Below, piece by piece: positions 6,603-48,219 of a DNA stretch of 64,000 nucleotides (positions are counted from its first letter, which is position 1; the number at the start of each line of letters is the position of its first letter). The notes under the pieces are model-generated. The model did not search any database, was not told where the DNA came from, and was given only the letters and a program-made list of their open reading frames with translations. The DNA is from a phage. Both the position numbers and the translations under genes were made by a program. The stretch lies in the sequence record PZ452583.1; one strand, given 5' to 3'.

Positions 6603-8190
<1,588 letters not shown>

Positions 8191-42957: not shown

Positions 42958-43227
42958 TTATTTAAAACGAATAGTTGAATCCTTAAAGAACAGCCCAGAA
43001 CATACTGTTCCTTCTACTTTCTGCCCGGTAGGTCCAATAGCACGAAATCCAGTATGTTGGAAATCATTTTCAGAGCAACCGAACCAGTTATATCCAGTGA
43101 TTTCAATATTCGTAAAACCACTTGATGATAAAATTTTAGTTGCATTATCAGCATCAGTACATCCTACTAAAGATACTGCTAATACTAATGCTGCGATAGA
43201 ACGATTAATATATTTCATAATTTTCAC
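42958..43227 (-). CDS. Putative lipoprotein (89 aa)
   Basis: Signal peptide with LVGC lipobox. Confidence 0.6.
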   Translation of the reverse strand: MKIMKYINRSIAALVLAVSLVGCTDADNATKILSSSGFTNIEITGYNWFGCSENDFQHTGFRAIGPTGQKVEGTVCSGLFFKDSTIRFK

Positions 43228-43601
43228 TTAAATTTAATAGCTTGAAGAAGACTAATAATTCTCAAGCGACTTCTTTCATCTTTAACTGTAAAGGAAAGAG
43301 GGTCGCCAGATTTCATGGTAATAGTGCATTCAAAATCAAAATCTTCTGTGACTTCTTCGAAGAAGTCAAATTCTTCAGCATAAATTAGAACATTACTCTG
43401 CATACTGTGAAGAATTTTTCCGTTATTTCCAGACGCTGTACTAATCATCGTAACATTATGACCTTTCATATCTTCAACGATAAATTCGCTTGTAGATATT
43501 ACAGCATTAATAGAACCATTCCTATAAATAGCAGACATTAGATATTTCTTTTCTTCGCCTTCGCGAATACGATATTTCTTACCGATTTTAAACATAATCA
43601 C
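43224..43601 (-). CDS. Hypothetical protein
   Basis: ORF track 125 aa. Confidence 0.55.
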   Translation of the reverse strand: MIMFKIGKKYRIREGEEKKYLMSAIYRNGSINAVISTSEFIVEDMKGHNVTMISTASGNNGKILHSMQSNVLIYAEEFDFFEEVTEDFDFECTITMKSGDPLSFTVKDERSRLRIISLLQAIKFK

Positions 43602-43774
43602 CCTTTAAGTAAATCGTAAAAACCACCATTCACATGCTTAGGAGCAGAAGGCCGACGAGTAGACAAACGATGACATTTAGGGCAAACATCATTTTCTCGT
43701 TCAGAAATCTTTTTAATTTTTTCATATTCATGCCCACAATCTTCGGATTGGCATTTATAATCATACATTGGCAT
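43598..43774 (-). CDS. Zinc-ribbon microprotein (58 aa, CxxC...CxxC)
   Basis: ATG with AAGGA SD; product MPMYDYKCQSEDCGHEYEKIKKISERENDVCPKCHRL...; not in track. Confidence 0.5.
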   Translation of the reverse strand: MPMYDYKCQSEDCGHEYEKIKKISERENDVCPKCHRLSTRRPSAPKHVNGGFYDLLKG

Positions 43775-43776
43775 AA

Positions 43777-44202
43777 TTATTCCTTAAAATGAGCTTTCAG
43801 CATCTGATACAAGGACCATGCCTGTTCATTATTTTCAATAGTAACTTTCATGACTGGGAATTCTGTGAAATCTTCTATTTGTTCTTGCTCTTTCTCTTCC
43901 TGCTCTTGCTCTTCAACTGCCTGATATGGATTTTCCACTTCATCAAAGAACCCAGCTTCGTTAGTAGAAAGCCAAATAAAGTTTTCGTCAAGGATATCAC
44001 CATGTGTTGCATATCCAACTGTGCCAGTAGATGTCACAATTTTAGTAGGACGACCAAGATGGTCAACATCTAAAATTTTAAAAGGATGCATACCTAAACG
44101 GCGTGCATAGATTCCGTTATCAGTATGATCTTTAATAAAATTTTCTTGAGCTTGTTTATTTTTAAATTGATACCATTTATTAACTTCAAATCTAATAGCC
44201 AT
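43777..44202 (-). CDS. Hypothetical acidic protein (141 aa; possibly goF/comC-alpha by size and position)
   Basis: ORF track; length equals T4 goF but sequence identity not verified. Confidence 0.55.
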
Positions 44203-44417
44203 TAATAAATTTCCTTCCAGTAAGTTGTGCCATCTTCAGTAATTTCACGAAATACACCGTAAATTGGTTGTTTATCACCAACCTTTTCATACACATAAAC
44301 CGAAGTCAAGTGAGTAAACTTAACGGTATGTTCCTTTTGAACCACTACCAAATCTGGATCAAATAATACATCTTCAAATTCGTCATTAGTGCAATTCTGA
44401 ACAATTTTGCGTTTCAT
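44202..44417 (-). CDS. cef: Cef-like protein (modifier of suppressor tRNAs) by size and position
   Basis: 71 aa, equals T4 Cef; assignment positional. Confidence 0.55.
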
Positions 44418-44430
44418 TACAATTTCCTCA

Positions 44431-44700
44431 TTAATTGAACAGTGGAGCGATACGTTTCAGAAGAGTAGCAGCACCTTTAGCGAATTTTACATCATGAAAA
44501 ACAGTTTCTTCTTCTGTAACAACACGAGCTTTAATGTTTTCACAATCCCAATTTTTGCGAACAATCTTCAAAAGCTGCAGTAAATCTTTACATTCAGCAA
44601 TATCGATAACACATCCACGAGAATCTTCCATTATCGCACGATAACCGTAAGCCATACCATAATCATTGAAAGATTGCTCGATGATAATTAAATTTTCCAT
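44431..44700 (-). CDS. Hypothetical protein
   Basis: Track ORF to 44757; ATG MENLIIIEQ has GGAGAATAAA SD. Confidence 0.55.
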   Translation of the reverse strand: MENLIIIEQSFNDYGMAYGYRAIMEDSRGCVIDIAECKDLLQLLKIVRKNWDCENIKARVVTEEETVFHDVKFAKGAATLLKRIAPLFN

Positions 44701-44722
44701 TTTATTCTCCAAGTTTTTCTGT

Positions 44723-44765
44723 ATCAGTAGTTGATATTGATATAGTACCATAATCAACTACTGAT
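44723..44765. repeat. 13-bp perfect inverted repeat ATCAGTAGTTGAT / ATCAACTACTGAT with 17-nt spacer
   Basis: Read directly; spacer contains a -10-like TGGTACTATA; adjacent A11 homopolymer at ~44781..44791. Confidence 0.7.
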
Positions 44766-44809
44766 GTATATAGTTTTATGAAAAAAAAAAATTTAAACTT
44801 TATGCAAAT

Positions 44810-45229
44810 TTATGCTAAAGCTGCTTCGCACCATTTTTTAATTTGGAATTCAGGAACTACCATGAACTGGCCTGCAAAAACAATATTGTAGAGCTTGACA
44901 CCATCTTCTACCCAACGGTCCGAAATAAAACCAGCGACTTGATTCGTTGTCCATGGAGTTCCATCTGTTGCCGCCGCAATTGTGAATTTATGGTCTTTTA
45001 CAACTAAAACTGAAGAACAAAGTTTCCATTTAAATGCGCGTTCTTCTGGCTCAATGAACTGACTTGAGACATAACCAATGTTACCATCAGCGTCACGAAC
45101 TTTAACCTCGTTACGACCAAAAACTGGATCACTTACAGAAAGAACTTCAACCAGCTTTCCTGCAACTTTAGAACGAGAAGCAACGGATACATATACGTAA
45201 TCACCAGTAGAGAGATTTACAATATTCAT
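44810..45229 (-). CDS. Hypothetical protein, paralog family member A (motB-region)
   Basis: 139 aa; shares N- and C-terminal motifs with 45239..45712. Confidence 0.6.
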   Translation of the reverse strand: MNIVNLSTGDYVYVSVASRSKVAGKLVEVLSVSDPVFGRNEVKVRDADGNIGYVSSQFIEPEERAFKWKLCSSVLVVKDHKFTIAAATDGTPWTTNQVAGFISDRWVEDGVKLYNIVFAGQFMVVPEFQIKKWCEAALA

Positions 45230-45238
45230 AATAATTCC

Positions 45239-45712
45239 TTAAGCTTTACGAGGAGAAGCATAACGAGTGATTTCAGATTCTTCAACAACCCGGAAGTCAC
45301 CTAAGAATACGATATTGTAGAGCTTTTCACCATCTTCAACCCATTGGTCTGTGATGAAGCCACACATCCTATCAGTTTTACTTGGACCAGCGAAATCATC
45401 AATATAATCGAATTCTTCATCAGTTACAAATTCAACGCCTTTACACAACGCCCATTTAAATTGTGTATTAGACTCAGTGGATTCAACTTCTTCAACAGAA
45501 GCAAAATGAGAGCTAACACGAGTTTCCAGAAATTTAGGACTTACGTAAGCGTACTGAGTTTCAGTTTTTCCAGAACTAGGAATGATTCGAACTTTAACTT
45601 CTTTAACACGACCAGTACCATTAGTACGAAGTCCTACCACTTCAACTAGACGACCTGCAGCTTTAGAACGAGATGCAGACGATACACGCTTAATTTCACC
45701 GATAGTAATCAT
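45239..45712 (-). CDS. Hypothetical protein, paralog family member B (possibly motB-like)
   Basis: Track ORF to 45757 overlaps promoter -10; real start likely MITIGEIKR. Confidence 0.55.
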   Translation of the reverse strand: MITIGEIKRVSSASRSKAAGRLVEVVGLRTNGTGRVKEVKVRIIPSSGKTETQYAYVSPKFLETRVSSHFASVEEVESTESNTQFKWALCKGVEFVTDEEFDYIDDFAGPSKTDRMCGFITDQWVEDGEKLYNIVFLGDFRVVEESEITRYASPRKA

Positions 45713-45755
45713 AATTTTTCTCTCTTTGTTGTTAAGATTTATACTCCGCAGGACC

Positions 45756-45785
45756 ATTATACTCTGGTCCCAAGAGTTTGTAAAC
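45756..45785 (-). promoter_or_regulatory. T4-type early promoter (GTTTAC / TATAAT) with flanking 6-bp inverted repeat
   Basis: GTTTAC, 18 nt, TATAAT; GGACCA...TGGTCC brackets the -10. Confidence 0.55.
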
Positions 45786-46222
45786 TAGCTTACACGAACA
45801 TTAATCACTGCGCTACGAGGAACTACAGAGTATTCTCCAGCATGAACTACGTTCAGAAGTTCAACACCATCTTCAATCCACTGATCAGTCACCCATCCAC
45901 CCACAGGATTCGCGAATGGACGACGAATATAAACTGCCTTACACAGCAGATCAGTTGGATCTTCAGGTTTTTCAATTTCTGTCAATAGACTAAAATCTTT
46001 TTCATAAATAATAAGCGATGATACCATTCCATAATAGTTTCTAATTTCAATATACATCATACCGATAAGAATTCCGCTATTAACACTAATAACAGTAAAA
46101 GGATATCCGCCAGTTAAACCAAGAAGTTCACAAAACTTATTATGAGCTGTATTAGACAGTACCGAAAAATTCTTAATTTCATCAAATTTTTTCAATTGAT
46201 AAACAGCATTATTTTTAATCAT
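45785..46222 (-). CDS. Hypothetical protein, paralog family member C
   Basis: 145 aa; C-terminal WVTDQWIEDGVELLNVVHAGEYSVVP shared with members A and B. Confidence 0.6.
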   Translation of the reverse strand: MIKNNAVYQLKKFDEIKNFSVLSNTAHNKFCELLGLTGGYPFTVISVNSGILIGMMYIEIRNYYGMVSSLIIYEKDFSLLTEIEKPEDPTDLLCKAVYIRRPFANPVGGWVTDQWIEDGVELLNVVHAGEYSVVPRSAVINVRVS

Positions 46223-46232
46223 GATTTTCTCT

Positions 46233-46745
46233 TTAATCTAAAGTAATAAAGCCTTTTAATTCGGCATGTGATTTGCGGAACATTACTTGGTGCCCGCCAA
46301 TGATAACTTGATCATCTGGCACTTCATAAATCGCAATGTACATTCCACGATCTTTTAAGTCTTCACGCTCTTCTCGAGTAAACCATCTCATTATATCATA
46401 TTCACTAGCGAAAGCAAAATGATATAATGCAATAAACCACAATGGAATATAATTTTCAATTCGTGAATAATCTTTATTCCATTTAGTTTTAATAGCATCA
46501 TTAGCATTTTCAACTAATAACTTATCATCGTGTGGAATAGGAATACTTTCATGGCTTTCATAATCATTGCTATGATGATGAAATGATGATGAATTAATAC
46601 CGCAAAATTTTAGCCAAGTTCGAGTTTTCATAGAATCAAATCCACGATAAGGAGTTGATTGAACGCATAACTCTTGCCTAATTTTCATTATACCACTATC
46701 ATCATTTAATGCGCTAAACGATGATTCAACACGATAAATTTTCAT
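46233..46745 (-). CDS. Hypothetical protein (170 aa)
   Basis: Track ORF to 46784 spans promoter; ATG MKIYRV has GAGGATAATAAA SD. Confidence 0.55.
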   Translation of the reverse strand: MKIYRVESSFSALNDDSGIMKIRQELCVQSTPYRGFDSMKTRTWLKFCGINSSSFHHHSNDYESHESIPIPHDDKLLVENANDAIKTKWNKDYSRIENYIPLWFIALYHFAFASEYDIMRWFTREEREDLKDRGMYIAIYEVPDDQVIIGGHQVMFRKSHAELKGFITLD

Positions 46746-46772
46746 TTTATTATCCTCAGTAGCTATGGTGTT

Positions 46773-46802
46773 ATAATACCACAACTGACCGAGGAAGTAA
46801 AC
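46773..46802 (-). promoter_or_regulatory. T4-type early promoter (GTTTAC / TATTAT)
   Basis: GTTTAC, 18 nt, TG-n-TATTAT on minus strand. Confidence 0.6.
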
Positions 46803-46808
46803 AACTTT

Positions 46809-47492
46809 TTATCGTTTTGTTGGAAGAGACAGAGGATCGCATTCTTCCTCTGATGGAGCGTCTTCAAGACCCATAGCATAGCGCAAAGCATACTTCATCA
46901 TCAGGATGTCTTTCGCACAGTCATGAATGGAATCATGCGCAACGAATCCATCTAAAGTTCCTTTTGGAAGAGGACACGTAGTCATATCACGAACAAGGAG
47001 AAGTGCTTCAATTCTAGTACGAATGTCGCGTTGATTCCAGAATTTACACGGTTCTAACTTAAATGTATCAAGCTCATTCTCGGAAACGCCGTTAAGACGT
47101 TGAATATCGCGAATGAGATCGACTAAAATTGGAAAATCAAACGACATTCCACGGCACCAGCCTTGAGATTTCCAAGGATCGATATTATGCGCATTGATGT
47201 AATCATTAAATTTTGCAATACCATCGATAGTGCTTACATCTTCATCTGATGGCGCAATATTTTTTCGAGCTTCAGGAGATTGATTCTTCCACCATTCGAT
47301 AGTGCTTTTAGTAAAAAGACGATGTCCTTTTTGGCTTTTTAAATCAAATTTGATTTTAATGCCACGTGAAACTAATTCATCAAATGTTTCAACGACTTCT
47401 GGATTAGGGTCAAAAGCAATTACAGCCAAATCAATAACAGCTGCTTTTTCACCGCTTCCCATTGTTTCAAAATCTATAATAAAATCAAACAT
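46809..47492 (-). CDS. dexA: Exonuclease A (DnaQ-like 3'-5' exonuclease)
   Basis: 227 aa, equals T4 DexA; DEDD-type motifs FIIDFET... Confidence 0.88.
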   Translation of the reverse strand: MFDFIIDFETMGSGEKAAVIDLAVIAFDPNPEVVETFDELVSRGIKIKFDLKSQKGHRLFTKSTIEWWKNQSPEARKNIAPSDEDVSTIDGIAKFNDYINAHNIDPWKSQGWCRGMSFDFPILVDLIRDIQRLNGVSENELDTFKLEPCKFWNQRDIRTRIEALLLVRDMTTCPLPKGTLDGFVAHDSIHDCAKDILMMKYALRYAMGLEDAPSEEECDPLSLPTKR

Positions 47493-47749
47493 TAAATTTT
47501 CCTCGCTAAATCACGAATTTGACCTACAGTATAGTCTTGAATATAAACTTTATTGATAGGCTCATCAATAAATTTTGCCATAGATTCAATGTCTTTTTGT
47601 ATTTCTTCAAGACTGTATACTATCTTTAAAGCTTTTTCGCGAATAGTAATATTTTCAGGACCCTGATTTTCTTCAATGACAGCTTTAACATTTGTCATAA
47701 GAGATTTAAACTGGTACCAACTCAACTCAATCATTAATAATCGCCTCAT
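47492..47749 (-). CDS. Hypothetical protein, tandem paralog 1
   Basis: 85 aa; similar to 47727..47987 (MRRL/MRKL, LEEIQKDI/LEEIERDL). Confidence 0.55.
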   Translation of the reverse strand: MRRLLMIELSWYQFKSLMTNVKAVIEENQGPENITIREKALKIVYSLEEIQKDIESMAKFIDEPINKVYIQDYTVGQIRDLARKI

Positions 47750-47987
47750 AAAGATAGCTAATTTCGCCTAAAACGTAATCATTGATTGTAACAGTTTTCA
47801 CTTCACCACAAAAGAATTCTAACGCAATTAAATCTCGTTCAATTTCTTCTAATTGAAGCATCAACTTACTAGATTCAATTTTTACAGTTTCACGATTTTT
47901 ACCATGAGCAATTTCATAAATTTCGCTAACTTTATCCTGAAGAAGATAAAACTGATCTTTAGTTATTTCCACGAATAGCTTCCTCAA
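47727..47987 (-). CDS. Hypothetical protein, tandem paralog 2
   Basis: 86 aa. Confidence 0.55.
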   Translation of the reverse strand: MRKLFVEITKDQFYLLQDKVSEIYEIAHGKNRETVKIESSKLMLQLEEIERDLIALEFFCGEVKTVTINDYVLGEISYLYEAIIND

Positions 47988-48219
47988 ATTTAATTAGTAA
48001 TTTACAGACACTTTCATCTAGTGTAATTACCGTATCTGTATTACTGTGATATGATTGTTTTTCAATTCGTTTAATTGCTAATATAGTATCACTTATAAGA
48101 TAAAGCTTATGAAGGAGCTCAGCTCCTGTTATCATAACATTAAGATTATCTTGCTTATTAGTATGCTTCCTTATACCATCTATTAGACGATTTAAATATT
48201 TTGAATTGATGTTAATCAT
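47959..48219 (-). CDS. Hypothetical protein (86 aa)
   Basis: ORF track. Confidence 0.5.
   Translation of the reverse strand: MININSKYLNRLIDGIRKHTNKQDNLNVMITGAELLHKLYLISDTILAIKRIEKQSYHSNTDTVITLDESVCKLLIKFEEAIRGNN

Follow-up and report, generated by a model that had tools for sequence, protein, structure and literature searches.

The three adjacent genes at 44810-46222 of the window (the whole 64,000-nucleotide stretch of phage DNA analysed here) encode proteins of the MotB family which share a C-terminal domain and, as far as can be judged from the sequences, the genes for the 139- and 157-aa proteins are the only whole-gene duplicates among them, whereas the 145-aa gene shares a domain with these two. 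It is highly likely that they represent the published MotB-family genes, with a common C-terminal barrel of about 55-75 residues and with a T4 MotB-like role in the modulation of the nucleoid and H-NS. Patterson-West et al. (2021, PMC7827196) showed that the C-terminal domain is conserved between MotB and MotB.1 and that their N-terminal domains are different, suggested that one of motB and motB.1 may derive from duplication of the other, and described genomes with two motB copies. The family, its common C-terminal domain and the genomes with several copies have therefore all been published before, and the present result is a correct rediscovery, the discovery value of which is small because near-identical phage genomes are already annotated in this way. 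The additions made here are the RB69-type pair of genes in a T4 backbone, the dN/dS values of 0.15-0.23 and the extra G in the T4 motB.1 reference.

The motB cluster and its three genes

The window is from a Tequatrovirus, with 98-99% nucleotide identity to RB3, RB27 and GiZh (also vB_EcoM-S1P5QW) over a 1.8-kb stretch. The three ORFs follow one another in the same direction on the minus strand, at the positions given in the initial annotation (Table 1). The gene order goF - cef - motB cluster - motB.2 - dexA - dda is common to GiZh and T4, and the synteny from cef to dda in the window (cef - motB cluster - motB.2 - dexA - dda) is the T4 arrangement. Comparison with the T4 proteins, which had been proposed as a check, gave identities of 46% for MotB, 79% for MotB.1 (over 116 aa, residues 1-116) and 64-65% for MotB.2, the last value holding also for GiZh MotB.2. 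The neighbouring motB.2 was searched with PF17613 and gave no match; phrog_1106 alone matched. Upstream of motB, the predicted sigma-70 promoter agrees with the consensus at 11 of the 12 positions, and the GiZh annotation has a host-consensus promoter at the same site; motB and the motB-like gene are probably transcribed from this promoter as a single transcript. A conserved hairpin was observed downstream of the motB cluster, and an Rfam search of positions 43000-48000 matched no RNA family. In addition, a GoF-like ORF at 43224-43601 showed a weak match to phrog_2333 (E = 5e-4).

Table 1. Positions of the genes, shared domains and promoter of the motB cluster in the window
Feature	Positions	Strand	Basis
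motB-like gene, second whole-length motB copy, 139 aa	44810..45229	-	ORF, PF17613, phrog_1671
Shared C-terminal domain of the 139-aa protein, residues 66-139	44813..45034	-	alignments
motB, 157 aa, RB69/Mosigvirus-type allele	45239..45712	-	PF17613, T4 MotB alignment, GiZh annotation
Shared C-terminal domain of MotB, residues 84-157, predicted SH3/Tudor-like barrel	45242..45463	-	
Predicted sigma-70 early-type promoter before motB, TTTACA-17-TATAAT	45756..45784	-	consensus match
motB.1, full length, 145 aa	45785..46222	-	T4 MotB.1 identity, phrog_2333
Shared C-terminal domain of MotB.1, residues 87-145	45788..45964	-	alignment, hhalign 99% probability
motB.2, neighbour outside the MotB family, start approximate	46233..46745	-	phrog_1106 only

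The mechanically defined ORF of the middle gene (45239-45757) has 172 aa. Its start is likely the ATG at 45712, giving a product of 157 aa, and this start is favoured because it has a ribosome-binding site (GAGAG) and is aligned with the start of T4 MotB. Judged by position and sequence, the gene is motB, in agreement with the initial annotation, which had noted that the middle copy sits at the site of T4 motB: it lies between cef and dexA in a T4-type early region, and the Pfam family PF17613 ("motB", gathering cutoff of 25 bits) matched residues 1-153 with 141.3 bits. GiZh carries an identical gene, annotated as motB. T4 MotB (NP_049626, PF17613) resembles the window MotB in genome position, in the two-domain layout and in the early promoter upstream, and the two proteins have in common the invariant motifs SRSK...G.LVE (N-terminal domain) and FKW and TDQWVE.G.KLYN.VF (C-terminal domain). 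However, the window MotB belongs to the RB69/Mosigvirus allele class (85% identity to RB69 MotB, P0009), and in the C-terminal domain it is strongly acidic where T4 MotB is close to neutral (+1).

The 139-aa protein is 37% identical to T4 MotB and 39% identical to the window MotB, and matches phrog_1671 with an E value of 1e-50. Its gene starts 9 nt past the motB stop and has its own ribosome-binding site (AAGGA). T4 has no counterpart of this gene; the copy without a T4 counterpart is thus the 139-aa gene and not the outer 145-aa gene. In a tblastn search covering 50,697 GenBank phage records, a MotB-type match was found in 774, about 208 of which also hold a copy with 80% identity or more to the 139-aa gene; among the matches listed, each record had two matching places. 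One motB-type copy only was found in 566 of the 774 records. A scan of IMG/VR with the 139-aa protein gave three loci.

The 145-aa ORF is, on sequence grounds, full-length motB.1 and the orthologue of T4 MotB.1, which is found at the same place upstream of motB and matches the same phrog_2333 (E = 7e-68 for the 145-aa ORF). The match of PF17613 to this ORF is limited to residues 104-139 (36 C-terminal residues), and the region that MotB.1 shares, 40-55 residues, does not include the tip of the long first hairpin of MotB. The window MotB.1 has a complete MotB-type C-terminal domain, whereas the T4 reference protein (119 aa) ends inside the motif. The length of 119 aa is due to one extra G, which is absent from all other T4 genomes, and the T4 reference MotB.1 is probably a truncated artefact of this one extra base. 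If this is true, the natural T4 MotB.1 would be a protein of 143 aa with the full MotB-type domain and an estimated mass of about 16.4 kDa, compared with 13.8 kDa for the 119-aa form, and the published tests using genes synthesised from the T4 reference would have examined a truncated MotB.1. A programmed +1 frameshift in T4 motB.1 was also considered and was rejected because every other T4 genome lacks the extra G.

In pairwise BLASTP with composition-based statistics, the 139- and 157-aa proteins were aligned over the whole length with 39% identity (E = 7e-29), the 139- and 145-aa proteins showed 55% identity across 31 C-terminal residues (E = 2e-11), and the 157- and 145-aa proteins were matched with an E value of 8e-12. 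Profile-profile comparison by hhalign of the MotB-type and MotB.1-type C-terminal domains gave a probability of 99% (E = 4e-18, 39 columns), and all three proteins scored above the gathering cutoff of PF17613 (71.8 bits for the 139-aa, 141.3 bits for the 157-aa and 32.7 bits for the 145-aa protein). The similarity is therefore far above compositional bias, so that the paralogy of the three adjacent ORFs in the C-terminal module, as originally described, is confirmed, and the alternative that the ORFs are unrelated and resemble one another by chance or composition has almost no prospect of being correct.

The 157- and 139-aa proteins have the two-domain MotB architecture (a KOW-like N-terminal domain with SRSK, and the C-terminal domain), and the segment VS(V/S)ASRSK(V/A)AG(K/R)LVEV reported at the N-terminus of the first two ORFs was seen again in the alignment. 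The 145-aa protein lacks this architecture; the comparison of its N-terminal domain with that of MotB by hhalign gave a probability of 0.2%. For this reason a whole-gene triplication, in which MotB.1 would have arisen from MotB by duplication over the full length and subsequent divergence, was rejected. Since the N-terminal domains are unrelated and the C-terminal domains match, the relationship is one of domain sharing and not of triple tandem duplication. The local duplication proposed in the initial annotation accordingly holds for the 139- and 157-aa pair, but not for the 145-aa gene, which is alike only in the last 40-55 residues. The C-terminal motif quoted there holds for the first ORF and the third, but in the middle ORF the sequence is NIVFLG instead of FAG, a one-residue slip. 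An internal duplication was also rejected, since no relation between the N- and C-terminal domains inside each protein was detected by hhalign.

Predicted fold and possible function of the shared domain

An AlphaFold2 model of the 157-aa MotB, obtained with 32 aligned sequences (pLDDT 81), has two beta domains, between which residues 66-82 form a disordered linker. In the predicted model of residues 82-157 alone (pLDDT 93.9), there are five strands, at residues 11-24, 28-45, 48-55, 58-63 and 67-70 in the model numbering, with a short helical turn (64-66) between strands 4 and 5. The five antiparallel strands, the turn between strands 4 and 5 and the structural neighbours are those of an SH3-like small beta-barrel; the helix between strands 3 and 4 and the OB neighbours that characterize an OB fold of the cold-shock type were not found in the predicted model. 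Thus, the shared C-terminal domain is predicted from the model to be an SH3/Tudor-like barrel rather than an OB fold. The likeness to Tudor, chromo, PWWP and KOW barrels, with 15-19% sequence identity, is a resemblance of fold and not family membership, and the first hairpin of the MotB C-terminal domain is unusually long compared with that of these barrels. There was no Pfam Tudor or KOW match on the C-terminal domain, and PF17613 was the sole match when isolated C-terminal domains were compared with Pfam at E <= 10. When the family profile was compared with the PDB sequences, nothing was obtained below E = 1, the family being without a solved structure, and the confident matches (E <= 0.001) in a Foldseek search against viral predicted structures were all to other MotB-family members in T4-like phages and offered no clue to function. 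In the family alignment, W124 is invariant and position 119 is always aromatic; the C-terminal residues that are invariant family-wide are D, W, E, G, L, N and V, none of which is basic.

In the databases, the MotB.1-type C-terminal domain was found to follow N-terminal layouts of several kinds; the proteins have 143-145, 164-169, 177-183 or 245-252 aa, and in the 245-252-aa class the N-terminal unit is doubled. A profile of the C-terminal domain compared with 1.84 billion representative proteins gave only 34 clusters. The convincing matches were all proteins of 43-251 aa, those with checkable context were from T4-like phages, and no sign of a wider family beyond the T4-like phages was seen among these representative proteins. 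Weak repeat-like matches in five long proteins were also obtained and were rejected as a resemblance of the hairpin motif; the two that were scanned are phage tail proteins. At the N-terminus of two distant family members, the Pfam KOW motif was identified, which supports the KOW assignment for the MotB lineage.

The charge of the two domains was calculated for each of the three proteins. In MotB, the N-terminal domain has a pI of 10.4 and a net charge of +7, and the C-terminal domain a pI of 4.4 and a net charge of -7. The corresponding values are 6.55 (net 0) and 4.75 (net -3) for MotB.1, and 4.9 (net -2) and 8.0 (net +1) for the 139-aa copy. The basic character of the N-terminal domain is lost in the 139-aa copy, and this copy is probably a sub- or neo-functionalised variant.

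T4 MotB is synthesised early and abundantly, binds tightly and in a sequence-independent manner to unmodified and modified DNA, and alters the H-NS footprint; 75 host genes were up-regulated, one third of them in the H-NS regulon, overexpression is toxic, and the benefit in burst size is 2-fold (PMC6070864, PMC7827196). H-NS and StpA co-purified with T4 MotB only with DNA present, and no DNA-independent contact with H-NS was detected (PMC7827196). By analogy with T4 MotB, the proteins of the window would be produced from sigma-70 early promoters minutes after infection, and MotB would coat DNA without sequence preference and rearrange the H-NS/StpA-DNA complexes, by which the silencing of the host nucleoid may be disturbed, with a modest gain in burst size. 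The identity of only 46% between the studied T4 protein and the window MotB counts against the transfer of this mechanism. T4 Arn and T7 gp5.5 are similar to MotB in that early relief or alteration of H-NS action has been proposed for them (PMC7827196). However, Arn and gp5.5 bind H-NS directly and have no sequence or fold relation to MotB, which was seen with H-NS only when DNA was present (PMC7827196).

In MotB and the 139-aa copy, a linker connects a KOW/SH3-like N-terminal domain to the C-terminal domain, and MotB.1 has the same C-terminal domain after a different N-terminal domain. In the description of Kim et al. (2025, PMC12152347), the N-terminal domain of MotB.1 is an LSm/SH3-like barrel with GoF and Frd.2 as relatives. 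Most of the DNA affinity could come from the basic N-terminal domain of MotB (pI 10.4), and the shared acidic and aromatic C-terminal barrel could be a common docking module, by which the different N-terminal domains are brought to the same target; the paralogues would then differ in what each of them brings there. The near-neutral charge of the C-terminal domain in T4 MotB (+1) counts against this reading.

An alternative possibility, which we consider rather unlikely, is that the shared C-terminal domain itself binds nucleic acid as a cold-shock-like OB fold and that all three proteins are DNA/RNA binders that differ in their accessory N-terminal domains. A cold-shock-like OB fold of the C-terminal domain was proposed on the basis of HHpred, and the authors of the 2021 study favoured either domain for DNA binding (PMC7827196); furthermore, the domain is slightly basic (+1) in T4 MotB and in the 139-aa copy. 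However, it is acidic in the window MotB (pI 4.4, net -7) and MotB.1 (pI 4.75), and no basic residue in it is kept family-wide.

Within the preferred reading, that of MotB-family proteins acting on the host nucleoid, a more specific role of the barrel can be imagined, although we regard it as quite unlikely: the C-terminal barrel would be a Tudor-like peptide-docking domain and not a DNA binder, directed to one common host target such as a basic stretch in H-NS/StpA or in a different DNA-bound nucleoid protein, and would serve as a portable address label of T4-like phages. The failure to detect a DNA-independent contact between MotB and H-NS argues against H-NS itself as the docking partner. 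If such docking does occur, each of at least four N-terminal layouts (KOW-like, LSm-like, the 180-aa class and doubled LSm-like) would bring an activity of its own to the host nucleoid.

Allele exchange and selection in the motB region

The backbone of the window is T4-type, unlike that of Mosigvirus. The DexA, Dda and Cef proteins are 100%, 98% and 97% identical, respectively, to those of T4, and 68%, 77-79% and 65% identical to those of Mosigvirus loci. MotB, in contrast, is 46% identical to the T4 protein and 75-87% identical to the proteins of Mosigvirus loci, and the 139-aa protein, absent from T4, has 84-92% identity with the second motB copy in Mosigvirus phages. At the nucleotide level, the window at 44805-45730 (to 45961 in some loci) is 81-85% identical to Mosigviruses, with 68-78% in the flanks, and positions 44915-45524 had no nucleotide match in T4. 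This contrast in identity between the pair and its flanks indicates that motB and the motB-like gene are a pair of the RB69-like allele class inside a T4-type backbone. The same cassette of motB and the 139-aa gene is found in the two-copy arrangement of RB69/Mosigvirus (Patterson-West et al. 2021), and RB69 has two motB genes, one motB.1 and a 29-aa remnant (PMC7827196). However, in Mosigviruses a motB.2 homologue lies between the motB-like gene and cef, whereas in the window this place is taken by a phrog_3720 ORF and motB.2 adjoins dexA.

Recombination has also taken place inside the genes, as judged from chimeric MotB proteins in the databases. In P0036 and P0104, an RB69-type or T4-type N-terminal domain is combined with a 139-type C-terminal domain, and P0035 and P0048 are mixtures of T4-type and RB69-type MotB alleles. 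These proteins show that the copies have recombined with each other, and so have the allele classes. On the sequences compared, the diversity of the region is mainly due to the swapping of old, deeply divergent alleles, together with recombination between copies.

The initial annotation had called such local duplication and divergence typical of genes under arms-race selection. In the present study, pairwise dN/dS was calculated by the method of Nei-Gojobori on nine orthologues, a small sample, with no recombination correction, and was 0.15 for the 139-aa gene and 0.23 for motB; the values for goF, cef and dexA were 0.13, 0.04 and 0.02, respectively. In the disordered linker of motB, dN/dS was 0.76, near neutrality, and in the shared C-terminal core it was 0.12-0.14. 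In this sample of nine orthologues, these sequence comparisons indicate purifying selection with a relaxed linker, and a gene-wide signal of an arms race was not detected. The dN/dS comparison among the paralogues, which had been suggested earlier, was also performed but is uninformative because the synonymous sites are saturated (pS 0.52-0.60).

One may still suppose that the copies are kept by an arms race, the paralogues or alleles being tuned by diversifying selection to different host nucleoid proteins or defence sensors. The identity of 46% between T4-type and RB69-type MotB while the flanking genes have 97-100%, the variable copy number and the chimeric alleles P0036 and P0104, and the location in a region of non-essential host-takeover genes (PMC7827196) are consistent with this idea. 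However, the gene-wide dN/dS of 0.15-0.23 is only modestly above that of the neighbouring goF, and no domain exceeded 1 in the pairwise comparison of nine sequences without recombination correction. We therefore regard this explanation as distinctly improbable.

Another explanation, and in our opinion a very unlikely one, is that the C-terminal domain is a module for homo- or hetero-oligomerisation, and that mixed complexes join the DNA-binding N-terminal domains with the LSm-like, putatively RNA-binding ones. The genes are adjacent and probably co-expressed early, the conserved core is the most constrained part (dN/dS 0.12-0.14), and T4 MotB.1 was seen as a monomer and a dimer on non-reducing gels (PMC12152347). 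However, the dimerising T4 MotB.1 was the 119-aa form without most of the C-terminal domain, so that the dimer needs no such domain; furthermore, AlphaFold3 gave no confident homomultimers (PMC12152347), and a single motB-type copy is present in 566 of the 774 records.

The reading of the three genes as MotB-family members acting on the nucleoid therefore remains the preferred one. As for the role of the two domains, the model-based prediction of an acidic SH3/Tudor-like barrel would make the basic N-terminal domain the more likely DNA-binding part. By-products of this analysis may be useful for work on host takeover by T4. The motB region as a whole is a mosaic: old classes of alleles are found across the borders between genera, and chimeras arise by recombination of the tandem copies.

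The extra G in the T4 reference motB.1

Comparison of T4 genome sequences showed that motB.1 of the T4 reference carries one surplus G (GATTGGAAGA vs GATTGAAGA; see the table below), and thus MotB.1 terminates within the conserved C-terminal motif, giving an annotated product of 119 aa ("13.8 kDa"). This extra G was restricted to the two copies of the T4 reference sequence, and it was absent from T4T, MT984581, KJ477684-6, OZ209023/57, OL964735/45, RB55, and RB59, among others. In both of the records examined for annotation (T4T and MT984581), a 143-aa MotB.1 with the complete MotB-type C-terminal domain is annotated. Kim et al. 2025 (PMC12152347) obtained motB.1 by synthesis and cited NC_000866.4; thus, the form assayed in that study was probably the truncated MotB.1.

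Features in and around the motB cluster
Feature	Position	Strand	Remarks
125-aa ORF, GoF paralogue	43224-43601	minus	phrog_622, E 6e-30
~90-aa ORF	44431-44703 (mechanical ORF to 44757)	minus	phrog_3720, E 2e-46; between the motB-like gene and cef
Perfect 13-bp inverted repeat, 17-nt loop	44723-44765	minus-strand RNA	flanked by the 139-aa gene and the following ORF
Extra-G site in T4 motB.1	~45868-45872 (window equivalent)		T4 reference locus L002 3292-3310 = ~7291-7309 of NC_000866.4
motB.2	46233-46745		

Small ORFs and a stem-loop beside the cluster

The GoF paralogue, located less than 1.5 kb from the motB cluster, also showed weak similarity to phrog_2333, the profile of the MotB.1 family (E 5e-4), and to FRD2 of Pfam (E 0.014). 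No counterpart was matched at the same position in T4. The ORF is an additional member of the GoF/MotB.1/Frd.2 small-barrel family.

Five long database proteins (P0245, P0247, P0248, P0250, and P0253; 567-862 aa) each matched the C-terminal-domain profile three to seven times, at its strand-2 hairpin. In a Pfam scan of two of the five, P0245 contained a PTR repeat and P0247 a Phage_tail_C domain; the PF17613 (MotB) score of P0247 was 29.3 bits. The matches of these long proteins probably represent resemblance of a hairpin motif, not homology.

The phrog_3720 ORF is not annotated in GiZh, a near-identical Tequatrovirus relative. T4 retains the region around its start codon, plus a C-terminal remnant of 18 aa (L002:2500-2553), and thus an internal deletion appears to have occurred within this ORF in T4. 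The inverted repeat immediately precedes the ORF's ribosome-binding site, and the stem-loop itself comes after a T-run that varies in length from 5 to 12. The folding energy of the 121-nt region holding the repeat was -26.6 kcal/mol (z = -4.75 vs shuffles), and the stem-loop sequence was 100% identical in T4 and GiZh despite the differing adjacent coding sequence. No Rfam family matched it in a scan of window positions 43000-48000. The stem-loop is not a classical terminator.

Divergence and recombination in the motB genes

The motB.2 product showed just 64-65% identity to the MotB.2 proteins of T4 and GiZh alike, whereas the neighbouring dexA showed 99.6-100% identity. motB.2 is thus a further deeply divergent allele of this hypervariable stretch. 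In Mosigviruses (RB69-type phages), the motB.2 homologue is located on the opposite side of the motB genes, adjoining cef.

Among the motB orthologues of the window and of loci L001 and L003-L009, dS of the C-terminal core (45242-45361) was 0.17, vs 0.42-0.76 elsewhere in the gene. This low value could reflect either recent recombination of the segment or constraint at the nucleotide level. The database MotB proteins include four chimeras: P0035 and P0048 are mixtures of T4-type and RB69-type alleles, and P0036 and P0104 have an N-terminal domain from one allele class and a C-terminal domain from the 139-aa paralogue. Such chimeric proteins would be the expected product of recombination, whether of tandem copies with each other or of one allele with another.
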